Shown: positions 5,963 through 47,790 of the stretch, one piece after another
How the letters are laid out: each line of letters begins with the position of its first letter
How positions within the stretch are numbered: position 1 is the first letter of the stretch
The notes under the pieces: generated by a model
Seen by the model: only the letters and a program-made list of their open reading frames with translations
Told to the model about the DNA's origin: nothing
The model's database searches: none
Origin: a virus
Strand: one strand, 5' to 3'
Length of the DNA: 64,000 nucleotides
IMG/VR virus record: IMGVR_UViG_3300034198_017033
Coordinates: 32,445-96,444 of that record
Position numbers and translations under genes: made by a program

Positions 5963-6399
5963 TATACACCAAGAGATTTTCTGATTTCTTCAAGCTCCAT
6001 TTGTGCTCTAAGCTCTGGGCTGATTAATTTGTTAAGACGTTCCTCAAGCATTTCCAACTCTTTTTTCTTGGTTGTAATCTCGATTTTGTCGATTCTTGTT
6101 TTGATGTCTTCGGCCCAATCATCAAAGGTAAAACCAAACCACTTAAATTCTAGGTTTGTACCGATGATTTTTTGTGCTTCGTTAAACGCGTTACGTTTCT
6201 CACACAAGAAACCTAAAATATAAACCAATTCTTCTACCGCACTACATACTTGTAGGTTGATACTAGCTGAGGAATCTTTGCTGTATCTGAAAGCACAGTT
6301 AGTGTTCCAGTTAGGTCTTTCAGCCTTAGCGATGGCTGCTTTTTTCTCGTTAACAATCTTGGTTAACTCTTGTACTAATTTGTCGTTGTTTGCACTCAT
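5962..6399 (-). CDS. hypothetical coiled-coil protein
   Basis: 145-aa ORF. Confidence 0.45.
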   Translation of the reverse strand: MSANNDKLVQELTKIVNEKKAAIAKAERPNWNTNCAFRYSKDSSASINLQVCSAVEELVYILGFLCEKRNAFNEAQKIIGTNLEFKWFGFTFDDWAEDIKTRIDKIEITTKKKELEMLEERLNKLISPELRAQMELEEIRKSLGV

Positions 6400-6401
6400 A
6401 A

Positions 6402-7742
6402 TTAAAATACTAATACTCTATTTTTGTTATTTTTATTTATCGTAACTAATTTTAATTTCATATCCTTAATAGTTTGATATGAAATCTTTTCAATTAACTT
6501 TGGTTTGATTGTTTTCAATTTAATCTCACCGTCTTTAACCGTAACAACTTTTTTAGCTGTTAACTTGTATGTCTTAATCTTATTTTTACTATTTCTATTA
6601 TAATAGTAACTAGCGTTAGAGTATTCAACTTCGTCCGTTTCTAAAGCATACTGTTCGTATTGGTTATTACCCAATGGTAAATAACAATACCCATAATCTT
6701 CATGCGAATGGTGAGAATATGTTAATTCTGTTGGTATAAAAGCATCGATTTCTTCAAGGTTATCAATAATACCACTAAATTTTGATTTATTAAATTCATC
6801 CAACAATTCAGCGTAGTTTGAAACTGGTGTGTCATTTGTTTTAATTGCAAATTTAGCTAAACTAGTAAACGATTCAATTCTTTCACCATAATTAGGTTTT
6901 TGAACTTTATAAAACACCTGTCTTTTCCCACAACTAACTTTGTCGTATCTATCATGACTATATCTGTAATGTTCATCAAACCAGTTGAATTTACCCAAAT
7001 AGATGTATTCTTCCATTTGTTTTGTTTTGTAAGTACAACCCTCAACCAAATCCTTAACCCCGATTTTTTGTGATTGCATTTCAGTAAACTTCTGTGATTC
7101 TTGATAATCAAGACTGGTTGTTGGTAACAACACTAAATCCTTACCATCCCAAGCATACACAAAAGCCCCTTCTAGACCTTTTCCTTTCATCGCGTTACAC
7201 TCTTGAAGAATAAACAACAAATTAGGAACACTGATTTCAAACTCGAAACCTCTCGGGTCGTACACACGACAATAAGTTGACCTATGGTCCCAACCGTTAG
7301 AGTAACCACCAACTTTTTTGTTTAATACAAAACCTTCTGTTGGTACGTTGTCAAATTCAATTGGTTTAAGTGATTCGTCAGAAGAAACTCTACCAAGACT
7401 AGGTGTGAATTTATCATAAGAACCAACAAATTTATCAACATATTCTTCCTCAGTCATATCAGCATATTGCTTATACCAATTATTTTTATTTTTTGAAGAT
7501 TCTTGAACATAATAAGCATGGTCTTTTTTAGACTTAGCCACACGGTCATTGTATTGCTCTCTACGTTTTTGCTGATACGTATCATCATCCATGTGGTGAT
7601 ACCTCCAACCTTCCCATGAAGGTTCTTTACGCCATTTTTTACCGTCAAAGCCGATAACATAACCCAATTTTCCACTATAAGTATCGGTTCTTGGGTTAAA
7701 ACCAACCTTAACTTTTTCTGCAATAAATAATTTTGAATTCAT
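6402..7742 (-). CDS. hypothetical protein
   Basis: 446-aa ORF. Confidence 0.5.
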   Translation of the reverse strand: MNSKLFIAEKVKVGFNPRTDTYSGKLGYVIGFDGKKWRKEPSWEGWRYHHMDDDTYQQKRREQYNDRVAKSKKDHAYYVQESSKNKNNWYKQYADMTEEEYVDKFVGSYDKFTPSLGRVSSDESLKPIEFDNVPTEGFVLNKKVGGYSNGWDHRSTYCRVYDPRGFEFEISVPNLLFILQECNAMKGKGLEGAFVYAWDGKDLVLLPTTSLDYQESQKFTEMQSQKIGVKDLVEGCTYKTKQMEEYIYLGKFNWFDEHYRYSHDRYDKVSCGKRQVFYKVQKPNYGERIESFTSLAKFAIKTNDTPVSNYAELLDEFNKSKFSGIIDNLEEIDAFIPTELTYSHHSHEDYGYCYLPLGNNQYEQYALETDEVEYSNASYYYNRNSKNKIKTYKLTAKKVVTVKDGEIKLKTIKPKLIEKISYQTIKDMKLKLVTINKNNKNRVLVF

Positions 7743-13011: not shown

Positions 13012-14136
13012 TTAGAGCATTTTGTATAATAATTTGTCATCGTAGTTTACAATGAAGTCTTCTACGGAACCAACTTTACCATCAACCAATCCGAAATACA
13101 ATCCAGTGAATTGTTTTAAGTCGTGTTTACCACAAACTTCAAATACAGCCGCAGCGTATCTTTTCTTTTCTTCTTTGGTTATGTTTTTTGGTTTACGAGC
13201 ACTTAACTCAACCCAAACATCATTTAACTTGTCAGTTAATTTATCGTAGTTATCTTTAAGTCTAAGCAATTCATCTTTTCTTTCTGGGAAAGTTGAAGCG
13301 AATTCTTCTATCTCGTTAGATTTAACGATAGTTATGATGTTGTGTTCAGCTGTTTTACCTTTCAAGTGGTGAACCGCAACGTAAGCTGGGTTTTTTATCT
13401 TGATACGGTTAAAATTAGCGTCTACAACAACGTAACCTTCTTCTGACCATGGCATACCTTCAAATGTACGTAACAAAGTACCCACATCTTTAGCATTCAA
13501 GTCAAATCTTTTAACCAATGGTACTCTTAACGATTCTGCAATCATAGTTAAGTTTTTCCAAGAAACCTCTTGTAATGTAACACGGTTTCTAACAGTCAAC
13601 AAAGTTGCTGATGATTCTCCGTGTGGTTTTACAACAATATTATATGGAGTTGTTAACTCAAACACATATACATGGTTTTTGTCGAACATACATGTATTCA
13701 ACGCATATTGTTTTGTTACAGTGTCCCAAAACAATGAGTTAAAAGTAGTTCCCATTTTGTTGTTAACTTCACCCTCACCCTCAGCTGTACCAGTAGTACC
13801 AGCATACCATTCTTCGTTTACCCAGTCCCAATACACTTGTATAAGAGTACCGTCAAGTTTCTCTAAAACGTGAGCTGTGTTCCAATCTATTTTAGCAGCG
13901 TTTCCTTCTTCAGCATTGAAGAATTTTGTGAAAGCCAACGACATAACATCCCATGTACCTTTTTCAAGGATAAGACCTCTACATTCTTGAACTTCTATGT
14001 TCGACATAATAGTTGGTGACACTAATTGGTCATATTTCAATAACACTTTGTGTTCGTATTCACGAGTTTTTAATTGAAACTCTTTAACAGCTTTTTCAAA
14101 ACCGTTTTCTTTTATAAATTTTTGTATTTTTAACAT
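13012..14136 (-). CDS. RNA ligase 1 (T4 RnlA-like)
   Basis: ECRGLILE matches T4 Rnl1 ECRGIMFE. Nucleotidyl-transferase motif I is EKLDGTLIQVY. EGYVVVDANFNRIKIK matches Rnl1 EGYVAVMKDGSHFKIK. Confidence 0.75.
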   Translation of the reverse strand: MLKIQKFIKENGFEKAVKEFQLKTREYEHKVLLKYDQLVSPTIMSNIEVQECRGLILEKGTWDVMSLAFTKFFNAEEGNAAKIDWNTAHVLEKLDGTLIQVYWDWVNEEWYAGTTGTAEGEGEVNNKMGTTFNSLFWDTVTKQYALNTCMFDKNHVYVFELTTPYNIVVKPHGESSATLLTVRNRVTLQEVSWKNLTMIAESLRVPLVKRFDLNAKDVGTLLRTFEGMPWSEEGYVVVDANFNRIKIKNPAYVAVHHLKGKTAEHNIITIVKSNEIEEFASTFPERKDELLRLKDNYDKLTDKLNDVWVELSARKPKNITKEEKKRYAAAVFEVCGKHDLKQFTGLYFGLVDGKVGSVEDFIVNYDDKLLYKML

Positions 14137-19266: not shown

Positions 19267-19333
19267 AATTTGTTTTTATTATAAATATAATAAATTCGAA
19301 CAAAAAGTCAATAGATTAACAAAAAAATTTTCG

Positions 19334-19419
19334 CTCTGGCTGTAGGATTCGAACCTACGTTGAGGGTGTACCCTAGCAGATTAACAGTCTGCTGCCATCG
19401 TCCACTCGGCCAAACCAGA
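19334..19419 (-). tRNA. class-II-like tRNA (long variable arm), anticodon GTT, discriminator G
   Basis: Acceptor TCTGGTT/AGCCAGA. D-arm GCC-GAGTGGACGAT-GGC. Anticodon arm GCAGA-CTGTTAA-TCTGC is one base from the E. coli tRNA-Tyr arm GCAGACTGTAAATCTGC. Variable hairpin GGGTACACCC. T-arm GTAGG-TTCGAAT-CCTAC. Confidence 0.5.
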
Positions 19420-19832: not shown

Positions 19833-19834
19833 AG

Positions 19835-19918
19835 TTGTGACGGTGGGACTCGAACCCACATTGTGTTATAAACACCCAGCGTATCAGGCTGGTGACTAAA
19901 CCATTCATCCACATCACA
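19835..19918 (-). tRNA. class-II-like tRNA-like gene, anticodon GAT; the D-arm is poorly formed
   Basis: Acceptor TGTGATG/CGTCACA. Anticodon arm CCAGC-CTGATAC-GCTGG. Extra hairpin GTGTT-TAT-AACAC. T-arm GTGGG-TTCGAGT-CCCAC. Confidence 0.4.
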
Positions 19919-19995: not shown

Positions 19996-20005
19996 TATGT
20001 TTTAG

Positions 20006-20077
20006 CACTACGCTCAGGACTCGAACCTGAAACCTTGGTTTTGGAGACCAAGATGATAGCCATTTCACCAGCGAAGT
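20006..20077 (-). tRNA. tRNA-Trp (anticodon CCA)
   Basis: Anticodon stem-loop TTGGT-CTCCAAA-ACCAA. T-arm TCAGG-TTCGAGT-CCTGA. The D-stem pairs U11 with A24. Confidence 0.7.
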
Positions 20078-25176: not shown

Positions 25177-26349
25177 TTATTTTAATAATTTTTCAAAGTT
25201 AGCTGTTTCCATTTTTTGGATGGCTTTTCCCAACTCAGGACTTGGTTTCAAATCAAATTTTTCCATAGCCTCTGGTCCGCTAACGCTAAGTCTATATTGT
25301 TCAAAAGCGTTTAACAATTTTTCTGGTATGTTTTCTTTCTCACCAAATTCTCTAATTTGTTTATCAGAAACACCAGCAGTTTGTTGCATTTTTTTCAACA
25401 AGTATGCGGTATCAACACTCAATTTTAAGAATGAAATTAAAAACACAATCGCTTTTATTTCGTCTGCTGAGTATTTCAATTCATTTAATTTTCTTCTTAA
25501 CAAATCAATTTCGTTATCTTTTAATAAACTAGCCAATTCAACAATGTAATTGTCAACTTTACCAGAGTTTCTCATGTATGATTTTTTATTCAATAACATG
25601 TTAGGTAACACCCATTTGAATAAGTCATATTTATCTAACATTTCCATGTATTTTTTAAATGACTTAGCTGAGATTAATCCTTTGATAAACTCATCTCTAA
25701 TACGCTCACCAGAAATACCTTCAAGACTTGCATCTTTTTGTAATGCCATATCTGTTGCTGGGTCTAAATCAGAACCAAATCTACCAGCAAATCTAATCGC
25801 TCTTAGAATTCTAAGCCTATCTTCACCAAATCTATCTTCTGGGGCACCAACAGTTCTCACAACACCGTTTTTAAGGTCGTCTACACCACCTACAAGGTCA
25901 ACTATTTCTTTTGTGTCTATATCATAGAACAAAGCGTTGATTGTAAGGTCACGTCTTTTTACATCACCATCTATATTTGTAAATTCAACACTGTCTGGTC
26001 TTCTACCAGAACCAATATCATTTCGAAACGTAGCTACTTCATATTCTCCTTGGTCAGTGAATACGTTGATAACACCAAAAGCTTTACCAGTTGGTAGGGT
26101 TCTGAACCCAGCATCTTGCATCATTTCTTCTACTTTGTCAGGAACAGCATCTGTAGCTAAATCAAAATCCTTAGGTGTTTTTCCTAATAGGGCATCGCGC
26201 ACAGCTCCACCAACCACATATAATTTATATCCGTTTTTGGTGAACACCTTTTGGATTTCAATTATATCTGATGGTATTTGGAAGTCAAATTTAATTCTTT
26301 CTTCCATTGTAAGTCCTTCTCTAAGTATTTGTTTTATCTGTGTTTTCAT
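25177..26349 (-). CDS. CCA-adding tRNA nucleotidyltransferase (class II)
   Basis: Head-domain motifs GGAVRDALLGKTPKDFDLAT and RRDLTINA. Start MKTQIKQILREGL carries the shared N-terminal motif. The -7 box abuts the ATG. Confidence 0.75.
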   Translation of the reverse strand: MKTQIKQILREGLTMEERIKFDFQIPSDIIEIQKVFTKNGYKLYVVGGAVRDALLGKTPKDFDLATDAVPDKVEEMMQDAGFRTLPTGKAFGVINVFTDQGEYEVATFRNDIGSGRRPDSVEFTNIDGDVKRRDLTINALFYDIDTKEIVDLVGGVDDLKNGVVRTVGAPEDRFGEDRLRILRAIRFAGRFGSDLDPATDMALQKDASLEGISGERIRDEFIKGLISAKSFKKYMEMLDKYDLFKWVLPNMLLNKKSYMRNSGKVDNYIVELASLLKDNEIDLLRRKLNELKYSADEIKAIVFLISFLKLSVDTAYLLKKMQQTAGVSDKQIREFGEKENIPEKLLNAFEQYRLSVSGPEAMEKFDLKPSPELGKAIQKMETANFEKLLK

Positions 26350-26350
26350 T

Positions 26351-26363
26351 TTGCAAAGATACA
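26351..26363 (-). promoter_or_regulatory. -7 promoter element (ttgcaaagataca) only 4 nt from the ATG
   Basis: Consensus motif immediately adjacent to the start codon at 26349. Confidence 0.45.
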
Positions 26364-26386
26364 ATTTTATTTTTAAAAAACAAAAA

Positions 26387-29974: not shown

Positions 29975-30108
29975 TTGTTTTCTTTTTAAATTTATTATAA
30001 TTGTTAGTAGTTGGACAAGTTGTCCAAGATAATGTCCAAGTTATAATAAACTTAATTCGGTGGTCTTGCAATCTACATCATGATTTCTATGTTTTAAATT
30101 ATTATTAG

Positions 30109-30178
30109 AGGTTTGGGGTGGATTCGAACCACCGTGCCAGTTCTTGCGGAACTGTACCTACCACTCGGTCACCAAACC
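30109..30178 (-). tRNA. tRNA-Cys (anticodon GCA), discriminator U; atypical C33 in the anticodon loop
   Basis: Acceptor GGTTTGG/CCAAACC. Anticodon stem-loop CAGTT-CCGCAAG-AACTG. T-arm GGTGG-TTCGAAT-CCACC. Confidence 0.5.
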
Positions 30179-30785: not shown

Positions 30786-30845
30786 TTGTTCTATTTGTTT
30801 TTTGTTTATAAATATATCATTTTTCTAAAAAATGTAAAGTGTTTG

Positions 30846-30918
30846 TAGTTCTAATCGGACTCGAACCGATATTTCTCCGTTTTAGAGGCGGGCGTATTCA
30901 CGTTAATACTATAGAACC
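30846..30918 (-). tRNA. suppressor-type tRNA with anticodon CTA (reads UAG), 73 nt with standard numbering, discriminator A
   Basis: Acceptor GGTTCTA/TAGAACT. D-arm GTAT-TAACGTGA-ATAC. Anticodon loop positions 32-38 are CTCTAAA (U33, A37). The anticodon stem is weak (3 GC pairs flanked by C-A pairs). T-arm ATCGG-TTCGAGT-CCGAT. Confidence 0.55.
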
Positions 30919-32748: not shown

Positions 32749-33426
32749 TTACGATAGTAATTGTATTTTACCTCTGTATATGTCTTTTATATTTGCAGTC
32801 TTTTCTGTGATATGGTCGATTACAACACCATCTTTAACTCTGTAGGTTCTTCGTTTATCACCTCTATCACCCTTCCCGATTTGGTCTTTTCTTTGTTCAC
32901 TAGCTTCATTATCATGACCGCTTCTATAAAAATCGTTTACTCGTTTTTTTAATTCGACAAGAGCTTCTTCTTTATTTTTATGTTGGCATCTTCCGTTTCT
33001 TACAACTTTAATACCTGTTGCTTCATGAGTTACAATTACTGTAGAGTCAGTAGTGTTGCGGTGCTGCCCACCTGGACCAGTCCCTCTAGTTGTTTCTAAA
33101 CGATATTCACTTGGATGTATCTCTACTTCTTTGTAATCGTTTTCTTGCATAAGTGCTACTGTTATTGAACTAGTGTGGACTCTTCCCTTACGTTCGGTTG
33201 GTGGGACTCTTTGCCACCTGTGGTTACCAATTTCGTTTTCGAAGATTTTTTTGACATTTTTACCAGTTAGTCATATGCTAACATAGCCATCTCTTTCTTC
33301 ATCGGTTATTCATCCGATGTTATTAATGTTTGCTGCTTTGGTGTAAATGTCTTTCATTTCACACACCAATAGCTTTGCATCGGTCCCGCCCTCTGCACCA
33401 CGAATTTCAAGTTTAATCTTTTCCAT
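32749..33426 (-). CDS. class I peptide chain release factor, RF1-like (domains 2-4 only), frame interrupted by two in-frame TGA codons (33312-33314 and 33270-33272)
   Basis: Conceptual translation [14 protein letters not shown]...[23 protein letters not shown]...[25 protein letters not shown]...GPGGQHRN...[15 protein letters not shown]. It has the PxT (PPT) and GGQ motifs. The first TGA aligns with the conserved Trp of the RF1 RRWRVEI block. Confidence 0.55.
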
Positions 33427-33467
33427 TGGTTTTTGTGTTTTAAATTAATTATTAGTTTAAATAGAAA

Positions 33468-33496
33468 AACCCATATTGCTATGGGTTTTAATTTTT
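33468..33496 (-). terminator. intrinsic terminator (aacccata ttgc tatgggtt plus U-tract)
   Basis: Lies immediately upstream of the RF1-like start, separating it from the tRNA/GIY-YIG unit. Confidence 0.5.
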
Positions 33497-33552
33497 ACAG
33501 AATAGTCTTTTTTGTATCCTAAACATTAAATTGCTGAATCTATTCTTCTAGT

Positions 33553-33638
33553 TGCGGAAGTAGGATTCGAACCTACAACACAGTGTTACTGCTCCTCTAG
33601 GTTATGAGCCTAGCATGTTACCATTTCCACCATTCCGC
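33553..33638 (-). tRNA. class-II-like tRNA-like gene, anticodon CAT; D-arm and acceptor are imperfect
   Basis: Anticodon arm CTAGG-CTCATAA-CCTAG. Extra hairpin CAGT-AAC-ACTG. T-arm GTAGG-TTCGAAT-CCTAC. The acceptor has about 6 bp. Confidence 0.4.
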
Positions 33639-33646
33639 GATGTATT

Positions 33647-35377: not shown

Positions 35378-35410
35378 CTCGAGGAGCTGACGGGAATCGA
35401 ACCCGCGTCT
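35378..35410 (-). other. tRNA 3'-half-like fragment (T-arm GCGGG-TTCGATT-CCCGT plus an acceptor 3' strand) with no recognisable 5' half
   Basis: Canonical T-loop sequence. No pairing 5' acceptor strand was found within about 400 nt. Confidence 0.3.
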
Positions 35411-35805
35411 TGAGTATTCTTCAAATGTTTTCTACATGTTTAGCTACAATTTTTCTTCTAGCGCCAGAATATATTATCGATGGCATCCAATAATAAAGAT
35501 GAATGGTGTACCATTATTTAGTGAATTATCACTATCAAGTGGATTACCACTATTTGCAGTTTTAAGCTACTGCTAACTCTCCGTTAGAAACCATTACAGC
35601 TTCATCAAGGAAATTTTCAGATACGATAAAATCGTTGTCAATTCAATGTTTAATAGACAGATTAAAGTGCTTCCAATCTAGCACTACATGCTTACAGTTT
35701 ACGACTATACCCAATCAAAACCAACCAACCCCATATTTTTCTAAGAACTTGTGATTTATAAATATGCGGGCACACATTAAAAAACCCGCATATCCTAAAT
35801 CTTTT

Positions 35806-35850: not shown

Positions 35851-36546
35851 TTATTTTTTCTTTTTGTTTGTTATAACACCATCAACAATACCATAAGCCA
35901 ACGCTTCTTCACCATTCATCCAAAAATCTCTTTCAGCATCTTTAAGAACTTGTTCTGGTGTTTTGTCAGTAAATTCTCCAAGCATGTTAAATAATGTTGT
36001 GTTATATTTTTCACCCTCAGCGATTGAACGTCTGATATCTTGAATGTTACCTTGGGCACCTGTTGATACTTGGTGTAACATTACTCTACTATTTGGTAAT
36101 GTGAAGCGTTTACCTTTGGTACCAGCACCTAATAAGATACTACCCATACTTGCAGCCATACCAGTGTTTACTGTAATGATATCAGATGAAACATAGTTCA
36201 TTACATCAACGATTGAAAGACCTGATTTTACTGACCCACCTGGTGTATCAACATGTAACGTAACATCCTTAACTTCTAAATTGTCTAAGAACATTAACTG
36301 TGCTTGAACAACAGTACTCATTCTATCGTTAACAGGTCCAGCTAACCAAATGATTCTATCCATCATAAGTCTGGAAAAAATATCCATTTGTGTAACACGC
36401 AATTCTCTTTCTTCTAAGATGTAAGGTGTTAGTGAAGCTGATGGACCATATATTCTAGTTTGAACATCTTCCCATGCTTGAAATTGACATGAGCTAATAC
36501 CCATGTGTTTGATAGCGTAATCTTTAAATTCTTGTGCGTAATTCAT
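35851..36546 (-). CDS. clpP: ATP-dependent Clp protease proteolytic subunit ClpP
   Basis: Active-site region TGMAASMGS. Ser-His-Asp context. Overall ClpP architecture. Confidence 0.8.
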   Translation of the reverse strand: MNYAQEFKDYAIKHMGISSCQFQAWEDVQTRIYGPSASLTPYILEERELRVTQMDIFSRLMMDRIIWLAGPVNDRMSTVVQAQLMFLDNLEVKDVTLHVDTPGGSVKSGLSIVDVMNYVSSDIITVNTGMAASMGSILLGAGTKGKRFTLPNSRVMLHQVSTGAQGNIQDIRRSIAEGEKYNTTLFNMLGEFTDKTPEQVLKDAERDFWMNGEEALAYGIVDGVITNKKKK

Positions 36547-40151: not shown

Positions 40152-41606
40152 TTAAACAGTTACGCTAGCGTAACGCTCTGAGCCGATAACTGACATCATC
40201 ATTGCTAATGGTGTCATTTCTTTACCAGCCAACAAGTTGGTAAGTAAAGCTGGACTGAACCCAGATACAAGCGCAGTTCCATTTTTATCAAAGTGAACTG
40301 GTTTGTTGTTATCACCTCTTGATTGAATGTTCCAGAAAACGATTTTTGGCACTTCGTACCCAGCATCGTTATACATTTTTTCAATCATTTGTTGAGCAGT
40401 TGGGTTCCAAGAACCTTGACCACCCCAACGACTACCTACAGCAGAGTCAAACTCCATATCTGATAGGATTAACATCATTGTTGGCATTTCCTCAGGTGCA
40501 ACATTAGAAGCAACAGCTTTATTTAAAATCAACTTGAAAGCTGCTTCTAAATTAGTACTACCACCCCATTTTGAACGTGCCATTTGACGGTATCTTTCTG
40601 ACAAACTACCTTTCACTATTTCTAATGATGGTGATTCGTGGAAAGTAATAAACGCGTCTTTGAATGGACCAACGTTTCTTTCTGAAATGTATAACCCCAA
40701 TGAGATTGATACATCCATACAAGTAACATTAGCGTTACTACCCGCTGGTGTTTCCATAGAACCAGATACGTCAACCAATGGCAACACTCTTTCGTTGTTG
40801 TTTTCCATGTAGTTTGGTAACGCGTTCCATTGAACATCAGCACCTTTGGTATTACCTTGTTTAAGGTTTTTGATGATGTCGTATGGGTATACGGCACCAG
40901 CATTGATTTTGGTTTCACCTTTTTCAACACTTGTTAAGTATTCTTGAAAACGAGCTAAGTCGTTTTTAGAGAACGCTTTCATGTAATCACTCATAGCTTT
41001 TGAAGGCAATTTAGAGTAATCAATTAAAGAGAATTCTCTAGAACACATTAATTGCTCAACTGTGTTAGAATTTTCAACTAACATTTTACGGTAGTCTTTT
41101 GGTGACATACCCATATATTTTCTTAAAGTGGTTGCCCATCTTTTTTTCTCACGATTACCAACATTTGGACGTGGAGCCCATTTTGCAGCTAAACCATTTT
41201 TACTAGTCAAACCTTCAGCATATAAACCTAACGCTTGTGTTTCTAAAGGTGTTCCAATCATCATAAATAAATCATCCCAACGACCAAACTCACTAATCAA
41301 ATGTAAGTTCTTAGCAAGAACCTCTGTACGGTTTTTACCTAAATATTCAATTATGTCTCTGAAAATTTGTCTCTCACCAGCACCACCACGAACATCACGA
41401 GCCCAAAAAAGCAAACGCATAGCGTTTAACGGGTTCTCACCAAAAGCTTTGGTAAACACATTGATAAGTCTAGTTTTATCTTGACCTCTCATTGCACCAA
41501 TTTGAAAAAATAAATCAACACATAAATTCAAAGAACTTGAATTTGTAGTCATTCCGTTTTCAGTTAAAGAATTGTTAGTTTGCATAGCTTTTAATAAAGT
41601 GCTCAT
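40152..41606 (-). CDS. vWA-domain protein (DUF2828-like phage protein; possible distant Ro60/TROVE-like architecture)
   Basis: MIDAS-like PLVDVSGSME. Large alpha-helical N-terminal region. Confidence 0.45.
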   Translation of the reverse strand: MSTLLKAMQTNNSLTENGMTTNSSSLNLCVDLFFQIGAMRGQDKTRLINVFTKAFGENPLNAMRLLFWARDVRGGAGERQIFRDIIEYLGKNRTEVLAKNLHLISEFGRWDDLFMMIGTPLETQALGLYAEGLTSKNGLAAKWAPRPNVGNREKKRWATTLRKYMGMSPKDYRKMLVENSNTVEQLMCSREFSLIDYSKLPSKAMSDYMKAFSKNDLARFQEYLTSVEKGETKINAGAVYPYDIIKNLKQGNTKGADVQWNALPNYMENNNERVLPLVDVSGSMETPAGSNANVTCMDVSISLGLYISERNVGPFKDAFITFHESPSLEIVKGSLSERYRQMARSKWGGSTNLEAAFKLILNKAVASNVAPEEMPTMMLILSDMEFDSAVGSRWGGQGSWNPTAQQMIEKMYNDAGYEVPKIVFWNIQSRGDNNKPVHFDKNGTALVSGFSPALLTNLLAGKEMTPLAMMMSVIGSERYASVTV

Positions 41607-46020: not shown

Positions 46021-47790
46021 TTATTCTTCGTCTTCGTAGTCTTCTTCGTCTTCTTCTTCACCTTCCATCAATGAATCCATTTCATCCATGTCTTTTTCTT
46101 CTTCTTCAAATTCATATAAAGAATCCATTTCTTCATCCATAGGGATATTAAGTTCTCTTGGAGGGTTTGGTAATTGGTCTTCATCGTCTCTACCCATTGT
46201 GTAATCAACGTATTCTTCTTCTTCACCCATGTAGTTTTCACCCATACCACCATTCATCATTTCTTCCATCCATGCTTCATCCATTGGTGCGAAATAACTT
46301 TCACCTAATTGGATACCTTCTTTCATGTGAACATGTTTTTTAGCGTCTGCCGCGTGAGCTGGTTTAGCTTTATCCCATTCACCTGTAGCTGGTTTTGCAG
46401 CATATGTAGTTTTTGATGGATTACCATGAGCAGCTGCTTGTGGTACATCTATTTGGTCCCATTCACCTTCACCTTCAGATTGGTCACCAAGACCTAATCC
46501 TACTTTTTTCTCAACACTACCTTGTACGTGTTTTTTAGCGTCTGGTGCTTGTTTTTTAACTTTTTCTAATGAATCAGCTGAACCAGTTTTAGCAGCAGGT
46601 GCTTTTGTGCCTTTGTCAGTGGTTTCTGAACCCTTAACATGTTTTTTAGCTTCACCAGCTTGAGCAACTTTTTCGTCAGTTTTTTTCTCTGGAGCTTTTT
46701 GTGATTCAATATCTTCACCTTCAATAAGAACTACAGATTTTTTCCAGATATCAGAGAAAATAACATTTTCATCAATTCTAGATTTACCTTTAACTGTTCC
46801 AAGAGTATCTTGAGATTTATACCCCATAAGGTGTTTCATTTTTTGCATATCCTCGTTAACCAAGGTTTTGTCAGAAGCCATAAGCACAATCGCTTTACCT
46901 TCAGTAAGTGTTCCCTCCCAACGCATTCTATATGACTCAACACCGTCAGTCATTTCAAATACTTTGTTATCAACTCTATATGATTCAGGGATAAGCTTCA
47001 AAGCGTTTCCAACACCTTTGAATTCTTGTTTGAATTTTAATCTTTTCATTCCTTCTTTTATTTGTGATTTATTGTTAGTTTTATCTTTCATAGCGATTTC
47101 TCTGCTAGCTTTTTCGTAGTCATCACCAGAAGCGTCTGATTGTGACATATCATCTGGGTCATCCATTTTTGTTTTGTCTTCACTCTCAGACAAAGATGAA
47201 AATTTAGCCATTGGTGCATAATTATCTGGTACTGTTTCAATGTCGTCACCAAAACTAATAATACCCTTAACAGCGTCTTCTCTCTTTTTATTTGAGTCTT
47301 TAATAGCTTGAACCAATTTTTTACCAAAAGTTGGTCCTGTAAACCCTTGTTGTTCTGGAACAACATTAGCATAGTCTGGACTATTACCCATAGTTGGGTG
47401 ACCTTCTATTGCTCTTTTTGCTCTTTCTTTGAACATTTTGTCTGGGTCTCTATCATATTCATTCATTTCTGGACCATTCATTATCTCCATTTCTTGGTGA
47501 TACTCTTTCTCAAAATCAGAATTGTAGTTGAATTTGTTTTGCGCCATGTCCTTGGTTTTAGAAGCAGATTTCTTTTGACCTTTATCAGCAGCTTTAAGAT
47601 TTTTCTCGATGTCTTTTAAACCTTCATCATTAAACGCTTTAGATTTAGTTAAAATAGCTTTTGTTACATCAATACCAGGAGTAGCTTCGTTTACAAATCT
47701 TTTAACTAATTGTTTTTTAATGTTATTTTTATCCATTTCAATGTATTTTATAATAAATATCACAGTTTTATATAAAAACTGTGATATCAT
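46021..47790 (-). CDS. large hypothetical protein, Lys/Glu-rich with an acidic C-terminal tail
   Basis: 589-aa ORF. The tail is EEEDEEDYEDEE. Confidence 0.5.
   Translation of the reverse strand: MISQFLYKTVIFIIKYIEMDKNNIKKQLVKRFVNEATPGIDVTKAILTKSKAFNDEGLKDIEKNLKAADKGQKKSASKTKDMAQNKFNYNSDFEKEYHQEMEIMNGPEMNEYDRDPDKMFKERAKRAIEGHPTMGNSPDYANVVPEQQGFTGPTFGKKLVQAIKDSNKKREDAVKGIISFGDDIETVPDNYAPMAKFSSLSESEDKTKMDDPDDMSQSDASGDDYEKASREIAMKDKTNNKSQIKEGMKRLKFKQEFKGVGNALKLIPESYRVDNKVFEMTDGVESYRMRWEGTLTEGKAIVLMASDKTLVNEDMQKMKHLMGYKSQDTLGTVKGKSRIDENVIFSDIWKKSVVLIEGEDIESQKAPEKKTDEKVAQAGEAKKHVKGSETTDKGTKAPAAKTGSADSLEKVKKQAPDAKKHVQGSVEKKVGLGLGDQSEGEGEWDQIDVPQAAAHGNPSKTTYAAKPATGEWDKAKPAHAADAKKHVHMKEGIQLGESYFAPMDEAWMEEMMNGGMGENYMGEEEEYVDYTMGRDDEDQLPNPPRELNIPMDEEMDSLYEFEEEEKDMDEMDSLMEGEEEDEEDYEDEE

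Follow-up and report, generated by a model that had tools for sequence, protein, structure and literature searches.

Recoding within a release-factor gene is the textbook case of translational autoregulation, and in the literature that we searched it is described only for RF2, whose gene, prfB, carries an early in-frame stop (CUU UGA C, with an SD-like element upstream) at about codon 26, within domain 1, and requires a +1 frameshift. According to a survey published in 2025, which covered over 12,000 genomes, programmed frameshifting is shown for prfB but not for prfA, RF1 escapes this mode of regulation, and TAG is absent from 8,164 prfB motifs (PMC12421855); likewise, the passages of the GeneTack survey that deal with release factors name only prfB (PMC3711429). 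Synthesis of a termination factor is also coupled to the efficiency of stop-codon readthrough in the case of plant eRF1, in a eukaryotic, NMD-linked setting where the stop is the factor's own terminator (PMC5397192). Class-I release factors linked to suppressor tRNAs are known from the recoded Jade, Lak and crAss-like phages, where they are reported to be full-length and written in the standard code, with the stop recoded in many genes (bioRxiv 10.1101/2021.08.26.457843, which cites Ivanova 2014 for phage-encoded release factors in recoded phages). The release factors of huge phages have simply been listed (PMC7162821). Finally, PrfH (RF-H), a paralogue paired with RtcB, consists of about 200-230 residues, lacks domain 1 and retains GGQ without a PxT/SPF codon-reading motif. 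Our search of the literature, which was incomplete so that a prior description is possible, returned nothing relevant on frameshifting or readthrough in the release-factor genes of phages or jumbo phages, and no case of an RF1-type gene with a prfB-like +1 frameshift.

The gene analyzed here lies in a 64-kb stretch of phage DNA (the window, by which we mean the whole of that stretch), which has 31% G+C and is tiled by about 84 genes, nearly all on the minus strand; the features of interest are collected in Table 1. On the basis of sequence analysis, we propose, with a probability of roughly 0.6, that this gene encodes a functional RF1-type class-I release factor devoid of domain 1, the synthesis of which would depend on the programmed readthrough of two UGA codons, an event specific to this gene. 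As in prfB, a release-factor gene carries early in-frame stops that need recoding, and the architecture of the prfB cassette is identical in many relatives of the window gene; in contrast to prfB, however, the window gene stays in frame 0, with two UGA readthroughs and neither CTT nor SD, the site lies in domain 2 of a protein without domain 1, TAG and TAA are also used within the family, and the protein is of the RF1 type, so that UGA would not be its own codon. Unlike the stop of plant eRF1, those of the window gene are internal, belong to a bacterial/phage system and are non-cognate for the encoded factor. Unlike the recoded phages, the window genome is standard-coded, with in-frame stops in the release-factor gene alone and with domain 1 missing; an RF2 of the Lak-B4 phage that we examined is ordinary and full-length. 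In contrast to PrfH, the window protein retains the full set of RF1 decoding residues, and its gene is not accompanied by RtcB. A gene considered as a possible RtcB that would complete a PrfH-like pair (40152-41606, phrog_850) was rejected, being a DUF2828/DUF7788 protein.

Table 1. Positions of the release-factor gene, its motifs and the associated RNA features in the window
Feature	Position	Strand	Remarks
RF1-type release-factor gene without domain 1	32749..33426	-	225 sense positions + TAA; two UGA readthrough events would be needed
In-frame TGA no. 1	33310..33312	-	codon 39; context GGA TGA A(TA); conserved 'GW' Trp of RF1
In-frame TGA no. 2	33271..33273	-	codon 52; context ATA TGA CTA
PPT tripeptide, RF1-type PxT 'anticodon' motif	33196..33204	-	within a stretch of 18 residues
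GGQ catalytic motif	33064..33072	-	codons 119-121
Terminator-like hairpin + T-run, directly upstream of the gene	33466..33489	-	hairpin scan
Terminator-like hairpin + T-run, directly after TAA	32715..32743	-	palindromic; scan gave + strand reading
tRNA-Met(CAT), 89 nt	33551..33639	-	immediately upstream of the gene; position conserved in relatives
tmRNA	35379..35732	-	about 2 kb upstream; Rfam RF00023, 72.4 bits vs gathering score 47; missed by ARAGORN
Amber-suppressor-type tRNA, anticodon CUA	30845..30918	-	1-4 kb downstream of the gene; conserved in AT-rich clade
tRNA-Cys(GCA)	30108..30178	-	release-factor gene module
Phage tRNA-Trp(CCA)	20005..20077	-	G10.U25 / U11-A24 D-stem; candidate near-cognate UGA reader

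Direct reading and translation of the minus strand yield a single frame from an ATG at 33424-33426 to a TAA at 32749-32751, within which there are exactly two stops, both TGA. With Trp placed at the stops, the product scores above the cutoffs of both Pfam families of class-I release factors (PF03462 PCRF, 55.8 bits; PF00472 RF-1, 82.2 bits), the PCRF match spanning only positions 101-194 of the 194 in the profile. Among the NCBIfam models, prfA (190 bits) scores far above prfB (100) and prfH (73.5, against a cutoff of 166.65 for the PrfH model TIGR03072); the full-length prfA equivalog models give 190 and 180 bits, below their cutoffs of 400 and 423. On E. coli RF1, which has 360 residues, the product covers positions 113-340; because the match begins only at RF1 residue ~105-113, domain 1, with its roughly 100 residues and the RF3/L11 interface, is absent; all relatives begin at the same start position. 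Sequence matches to RF1 in the PDB reach an E-value of 7e-38 and, in a Foldseek search with the structure predicted for a database protein 98% identical to the product, the top 17 matches are RF1 or mitochondrial RF1-like chains. The residues that read the stop codon, namely the PPT tripeptide together with the third-base readers Gln72, His84 and Thr85, are all present, and from the PPT, Gln and His-Thr motifs a UAA/UAG specificity can be predicted. The terminator-like hairpins on either side of the gene belong to four such sites in the region, against 0.6 expected from shuffles. The preliminary description of this DNA had presented the gene as an N-terminally truncated RF1-like factor, with a frame that continues unbroken into the GGQ-bearing ORF and a terminator directly upstream, and these points are borne out: the profiles favor RF1, domain 1 is not encoded, the frame runs over 225 positions with no frameshift, and a hairpin with a T-run, followed by a tRNA-Met gene, lies upstream. 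That description had also placed the first of the two in-frame TGAs at the conserved Trp of RF1 and the second before a C, as we find; its coordinates for the two codons (33312-33314 and 33270-33272) were off by 2 and 1 nt, respectively.

A gene interrupted by two stops could be a dead copy acquired from an organism in which TGA encodes Trp, or else a sequencing or assembly artefact. In apparent agreement with the former possibility, the code-4 RF1 genes of Mycoplasma and Ureaplasma spell this very 'GW' Trp as TGA. However, the comparison with relatives, for which loci were fetched from viral (24), metagenomic (80) and genomic (80) sources along with GenBank huge-phage records, yields dN/dS values of 0.07-0.29 on both sides of the stops. 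For codons 1-38, the comparison with eight relatives that share 60-80% of their protein residues gives a dN/dS of 0.15-0.23, and for codons 53-225, where dS is estimable, one of 0.07-0.16; the proportion of synonymous differences reaches 0.5-0.98, that is, saturation, and yet both TGAs are invariant. No further stops or frameshifts appear in the gene in this eight-relative comparison, and the start and the architecture are conserved as well. All close relatives whose DNA was inspected have both TGAs, in independent assemblies, and the loci that retain the first TGA include L001-L005, L025-L030, L033, L048, L125, L126 and LR756501.1. The 225-residue database 'proteins' that show Trp at these two positions stem from gene calling with alternative codes, and the DNA behind them reads TGA, or TAG where the call shows Gln. 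The conservation of the TGAs exceeds chance, and conserved in-frame stops flanked on either side by sequence under purifying selection in the same frame are the pattern expected of programmed readthrough. We accordingly reject the suggestion, made in the preliminary description, of a decaying pseudogene from a TGA=Trp source, on the strength of the dN/dS values and the conserved stops, and give practically no credence to an artefact.

The same reasoning bears on the possibility that translation yields just the portion downstream of the second TGA, starting for instance at Met93 (ORF of 133 aa, 32749-33150), which would be an ArfB/ICT1-like GGQ protein that does not read stop codons. Gene callers produce just such fragments, of 133-184 aa. 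However, codons 1-92, with the decoding motif included, are under purifying selection in the same frame, Met93 is unconserved (L or I in relatives), there is no start codon after the second TGA, and the ArfB profile matches only 38 residues; this reading is hardly credible.

With respect to the genetic code of the phage, we looked for other genes in which a stop joins two coding segments, using a coding-potential score based on codon usage and trained on the window. Total ORF length ratios under codes 11, 4 and 15 were discarded because they were confounded by base composition (GC). A BLAST comparison of 'permissive' ORFs across loci, intended to reveal other recoded genes, returned mainly antisense or off-frame matches among near-identical loci, and coding-potential tests took its place. 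The release-factor gene is the only coding-strand ORF in the window where TGA joins two segments with positive coding potential; another TGA-joined candidate is antisense to a highly biased gene (46021-47790), and on the coding strand of the 64-kb window no TAG joins two coding segments. Apart from the release-factor genes, the flanks of 30 relatives contained two TGA-joined candidates, one of which consists of adjacent in-frame genes (a TGA-terminated gene followed by AAGGAG-N-ATG), whereas the other was judged spurious. The predicted genes of the window (84) end in TAA in 73 cases, TAG in 6 and TGA in 5. A complete relative of 634,780 bp is available among the huge phages of Al-Shayeb et al. 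2020 (LR745206.1); its release-factor gene has TGA at codons 44 and 52 (window numbering), and it carries 59 tRNAs, among which there is one tRNA-Trp(CCA) and neither a UCA nor a CUA anticodon. The stops of this genome are 445 TAA, 102 TGA and 48 TAG, and the RF1-like gene is the only credible TGA-interrupted gene in it: the 35 raw TGA candidates are mostly antisense frames of long genes (e.g., a cluster at 152-158 kb) or adjacent same-frame genes. A tRNA(UCA) was detected neither in the window nor in LR745206.1, nor in those flanks that were scanned for tRNAs. The recoding is thus gene-specific: the window, the flanks of the relatives and LR745206.1 show no other credible TGA-interrupted gene.

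These observations lend no support to a code-4-like island, another of the possibilities originally raised: TGA functions as a stop in other genes of the window and terminates 102 ORFs of LR745206.1, a genome without tRNA(UCA). What stood of the original proposal that UGA is read as Trp is leaky or programmed readthrough, the best-supported mechanism. A stage-specific code switch would differ from an island in that a tRNA(UCA) or the removal of RF2 would be encoded elsewhere in the genome and TGA would occur in late genes, making the RF1-like gene one of several TGA-containing genes, as in the code-4 'Jade' phages. Phage RF1 genes are indeed known from TGA-recoded phages (bioRxiv 10.1101/2021.08.26.457843), the amber-suppressor tRNA suggests that the phage does interfere with stop decoding, and the window represents 64 kb of a probably much larger genome, outside which a UCA tRNA or TGA-containing late genes could lie. 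However, the searches of the window and of the 30 flanks revealed no further TGA-interrupted gene, the 635-kb relative combines the double TGA with the use of TGA as a stop and no tRNA(UCA), and the Jade phages write their code-change genes in the standard code. We consider such a switch very improbable.

In the relatives with a single TGA, the spacing to the 'GW' Trp is identical to that in T. maritima RF1. Following 64 distinct in-frame TGAs of the family, the +4 base is A in 41 cases, C in 20, G in 3 and never T, that is, A or C at 61 of the 64 sites, against a background, among the first bases of codons, of.37 A,.105 C,.32 G and.21 T. When a Leu codon follows the TGA, it is CTA or CTG in all 21 cases; TTA accounts for 58% of the Leu codons in the window. 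The codon before the TGA mostly ends in C across the sites of the family. A following C is stated to weaken termination at UGA in a passage of PMC10798248 that cites Poole 1995, and the contexts of the stops are of the weak-termination type. Where sense codons replace the stops, they are near-cognate and a single step away: L127 has TGG at site 1b, and the frameshift clade has TGT at the two sites. Among the readthrough sites of the family, 64 of 66 are TGA. UGA is the leakiest stop codon, and its predominance may reflect this leakiness rather than the factor's own specificity.

Several other modes of decoding were set aside. RNAalifold detected no conserved RNA structure over codons 33-80 of 18 double-stop genes; a 6-bp hairpin with the first TGA in its loop (33300-33319) was dismissed as a stimulator, since it is not conserved. 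Bypassing in the style of T4 gene 60, from GGA-TGA, was dropped because the 12 intervening codons align with RF1 and with the relatives, and it is further disfavored by the variable take-off codon (GGA, GCT, GAC or AAC). Selenocysteine was likewise set aside, the sites being Trp/Cys/aromatic positions and a conserved downstream structure being absent.

A candidate reader of the UGAs is encoded by the phage itself. Its tRNA-Trp has a G10.U25 / U11-A24 D-stem, which recurs in the tRNA-Trp of L027 and LR745206.1. The Hirsh suppressor change in E. coli tRNA-Trp is A24 (G24A), and wild-type B. subtilis tRNA-Trp also has U11-A24. The U11-A24 pair, to which attention had been drawn at the outset as a Hirsh-type feature, is real, and it is compatible with suppressor activity, but not diagnostic of it, because an ordinary B. 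subtilis tRNA-Trp has the same pair. The candidate decoding is thus the same as in the Hirsh suppressor and in natural low-level UGA-to-Trp readthrough; what differs is that the window gene represents a natural, conserved and gene-specific two-site requirement, and that the suppressor activity of the phage tRNA is putative. The second candidate, tRNA-Cys(GCA), is retained where the release-factor gene has an in-frame TGA, whereas a GAA-anticodon variant takes its place in relatives with no TGA. The tRNAs are part of a conserved module in the order tmRNA, tRNA-Met, one ORF, tRNA-Met, release-factor gene, SPFH-domain gene, tRNA(CUA) and tRNA-Cys(GCA); the tmRNA module, with ClpP adjoining the tmRNA, recurs in relatives. 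The CUA tRNA had been taken as a further sign that the phage manipulates termination; its linkage with the release-factor gene is conserved in the AT-rich clade, and an in-frame TAG as its target was not found in the window.

With regard to the likely host, an SD precedes only 2-4 of the 70 window genes considered, and A predominates in the upstream regions, as is usual in Bacteroidia. F. johnsoniae contains much less RF2 than RF1, and its stops are used in proportions of.79 UAA,.14 UAG and.07 UGA (PMC10798248), to which those of the window (.87,.07 and.06, respectively) are close. In an F. johnsoniae-like host, termination should be weakest at UGA, and the UAA-ending phage genes should be terminated mainly by RF1.

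The wider family comprises 95 distinct genes with an intact 5' end (97% threshold), of which 9 are uninterrupted; in the other 86, a signal for the recoding of a stop lies within the first ~55 codons. One in-frame TGA, usually exactly at the 'GW' Trp of RF1, is found in 29 members, two TGAs in 19 (including the window, the 735-kb phage LR756501.1 and LR745206.1) and a TGA with an in-frame TAG in 2. The remaining signals are +1 frameshifts, at site 1 in 25 members and at site 2 in 11 (two of which also have the site-1 TGA), so that 36 distinct relatives have CTT and an in-frame stop with the ORF continuing in +1. The site-1 frameshift is the prfB cassette: GGAGG or GGGGG, 3 nt, CTT, a stop (TGA 16, TAG 7, TAA 2) and a final C or G. 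Nearly all of these members have the SD-like stimulator, at a distance of 3 nt from CTT. The site-2 frameshift sites, one codon downstream of the window's second TGA, all read TGT CTT TAG CGG, and no SD-like element was found near them in this AT-rich clade. The family is not limited to phages: members are present on 800-kb Variovorax replicons, in numerous MAGs of Polyangiaceae and in two complete chromosomes, those of Archangium gephyra and Minicystis rosea; in Thiobacillus denitrificans DSM 12475, the gene lies within an array of 26 tRNAs. Megablast of the window locus against GenBank phages gave no match. PGAP splits the Variovorax gene into two CDS, a 'hypothetical protein' and a 'peptide chain release factor-like protein'.

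This diversity of signals bears on the mechanism that we propose for the window gene. Termination by RF2 at either UGA would release a fragment of 38 or 51 residues; at each UGA, a near-cognate tRNA would compete with RF2 and insert an amino acid. The most likely reader would be tRNA-Trp(CCA), possibly the phage's own U11-A24 species, with tRNA-Cys(GCA) as the alternative, and UGA would be decoded probably as Trp, possibly as Cys. Full-length output would vary roughly as the square of UGA leakiness, being very low under efficient RF2 termination and rising steeply once UGA termination is weak or phage tRNAs accumulate. The relatives would achieve this with one UGA or with a CTT-stop +1 frameshift, in the same two places. 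Which tRNA decodes the UGAs, how sensing would operate and whether the factor is specific for UAA/UAG are matters of inference, and two UGAs in series imply a very low yield unless readthrough is unusually efficient.

It could be argued that the stops are never 'sensed' and act as a fixed attenuator that holds a potentially toxic release factor 100- to 10,000-fold below the level of a heavily transcribed tRNA array. In many relatives, the gene indeed lies within tRNA or tmRNA arrays, uncontrolled overexpression of a release factor is toxic in B. subtilis (PMC12421855), two serial stops suit a very low output, and all three kinds of stop are in use across the family. However, the site-1 frameshift members carry the complete prfB cassette, a known sensor, expression would be more simply lowered by a weak start site, and the sense alternatives and the +4 context are constrained as expected of a tuned competition with termination. 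Sequence analysis does not distinguish sensing from fixed attenuation; on balance, we regard the latter as rather unlikely.

The preliminary description had drawn a parallel with the autoregulation of prfB. The regulatory part of this proposal is strongly supported, a true prfB cassette being present at the same site in relatives, whereas the 'auto' part is doubtful, because UGA is an RF2 codon and the decoding motifs are RF1-type. Since these motifs predict UAA/UAG specificity, the UGA gate would report on RF2 rather than on the factor itself. The TAG-using relatives, in contrast, would have a stop that matches the encoded factor, and the TAG gate in the sister clade could represent true RF1 autoregulation. 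For the window gene, negative feedback in the manner of prfB would require that the PPT-type factor itself reads UGA, through an omnipotent or RF2-like reach. Such altered specificity is suggested by the middle Pro of PPT, an RF2-like feature, by the occurrence of SPT in some members and the replacement of the third-base-reading Gln and His in some huge-phage members (GSHCFIRVPPTERNGRTQTS), and by the GC-rich members, which mostly have a TGA sensor and presumably reside in TGA-rich genomes. However, the RF1 determinants are all present in the window protein (Pro as the first and Thr as the last residue of the tripeptide, Gln in HRWQR, and His-Thr in HTS), the RF1 profile score is nearly twice that of RF2, and the tripeptide type is uncorrelated with the sensor codon, save for a weak enrichment of SPT among TAG members. 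Thus, we view true autoregulation by a UGA-reading factor as unlikely, and return to readthrough of two UGAs under competition with RF2 as the preferred account of the window gene.

More tentatively, and at somewhat less than even odds, the window gene might exemplify a large, hitherto unrecognized class of recoding-gated, domain-1-less RF1 paralogues in huge phages, Variovorax megaplasmids and myxobacteria, a class that would include RF1-type genes with a prfB-like +1 frameshift, some of them on the RF1-specific UAG. In the window lineage, the gate would be a two-UGA 'AND gate', decoded by phage tRNAs and acting as a sensor of termination stress.

The RF1-type family uses gates of the kind known from RF2; they involve all three stop codons, and readthrough as well as +1 frameshifting, at times together in one gene. 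It provides a natural series for studying how termination is balanced against readthrough and frameshifting, both in hosts that recognize SD sequences and in hosts that do not. The analysis also flags a systematic annotation error, in that pipelines split such release-factor genes or call them under code 4. The idea can be tested in cultured carriers, namely Variovorax sp. SRS16 and WDL1, with the locus at NZ_LR594667.1 61520-62224, Archangium gephyra SDU49, Minicystis rosea DSM 24000 and Thiobacillus denitrificans DSM 12475. If it is correct, the AND gate of the window lineage would be decoded by a tRNA-Trp with U11-A24 or by the linked tRNA-Cys of the phage translation module, and the sensor would let the element top up termination at UAA and UAG when that of the host falters.

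A hint as to how the in-frame TGA of the release factor (RF) gene is accommodated comes from the small tRNA that accompanies this gene in the conserved module of tmRNA, tRNAs and RF gene. Wherever the RF gene contains an in-frame TGA, the small tRNA of the module is invariably tRNA-Cys(GCA). In the pure frameshift clade, where a CTT-stop +1 frameshift is used, the RF genes are free of TGA and carry the cysteine codon TGT at both recoding positions (site 1 and site 2), and the orthologous small tRNA reads GAA in the anticodon position and is shortened in a stem. That the anticodon covaries with the in-frame TGA suggests that the small tRNA is tied to the decoding of the RF gene. The tRNA-Cys(GCA) of the window also has C in place of U at position 33.

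The first TGA lies in the loop of a 6-bp hairpin (CATCGG...CCGATG) that is partially retained in the closest relatives and is not conserved across the wider clade; RNAalifold found no consensus structure.

Two further module components accompany the RF gene. The tRNA with the amber-suppressor-type anticodon CUA remains a neighbour of the RF gene throughout the AT-rich clade. It shows G1.U72, A73 and a weak anticodon stem that contains two C.A mismatches. No gene that needs TAG as a sense codon was found within the 64-kb window; the RF gene itself has an in-frame TAG at site 2 in a few relatives (L035, L037, L045 and L127). The phage-encoded tmRNA, which matches Rfam RF00023 and was not reported by ARAGORN, adjoins the ClpP gene and precedes the RF gene by ~2 kb; tmRNA and RF gene are arranged in this way also in relatives L005, L008, L028, L029 and L128.

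Coordinates of features in the window and in related loci
Feature	Location	Strand	Remark
RNA ligase, T4 Rnl1-like	13012-14136		
tRNA-Asn, long class-I	19333-19419		87 nt
tRNA-Ile, long class-I	19834-19918		85 nt
CCA-adding enzyme	25177-26364		
tRNA-Cys(GCA) of module	30108-30178	-	
tRNA(CUA), amber-suppressor-type	30845-30918	-	
Hairpin at first TGA	33300-33319		
tRNA-Met, long class-I	33551-33639		89 nt
tmRNA	35379-35732	-	RF00023, 72.4 bits
ClpP gene	35851-36546		
DUF2828/DUF7788 protein	40152-41606		phrog_850 'RNA-binding'
Small module tRNA, relatives	L008 5958-6027; L010 9838-9907; L012 8050-8119		
Tandem RF1-like genes	L085 952-1608; 2914-3582		same contig
RF family member	L208, NZ_LR594667.1 61520-62224		Variovorax sp. 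SRS16 plasmid 2

The three long class-I tRNAs (Asn, Ile and Met) exceed the usual length by 10-15 nt and may contain inserts or introns. The RNA ligase, the CCA-adding enzyme and the DUF2828/DUF7788 protein share their region with 15 tRNAs; this region is rich in functions for tRNA repair and maintenance. With respect to the host, the rarity of Shine-Dalgarno motifs (only 2-4 of the 70 predicted gene starts in the window), together with A-richness at -14 to -3, points to a host of the Bacteroidia type. Such a host is consistent with the kinship to the huge phages described by Al-Shayeb et al. (2020).

The family extends to cultured bacteria. Variovorax sp. SRS16, which uses the standard code, encodes a member with in-frame GGC TGA CTC that RefSeq splits into two separate CDS, and frameshift-type copies reside on the chromosomes of Archangium gephyra SDU49 and Minicystis rosea DSM 24000. 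Furthermore, both recoding types occur within a single RF gene in L038/L039 and L042 (gene ~6001-6676), where site 1 holds the in-frame TGA and site 2 a CTT TAG C +1 frameshift, and in each of the two tandem copies of L085 the Trp position is occupied by an in-frame TGA. Finally, L107 (LR756502.1) and L108 (LR756501.1), which belong to the largest phages known, have different decoding residues (GSHCF[IV]R[VI]PPTERN.RTQTS): Ile or Val replaces the Gln that reads the third base, and Gln replaces His. These replacements hint that stop-codon specificity is altered in part of the RF family.
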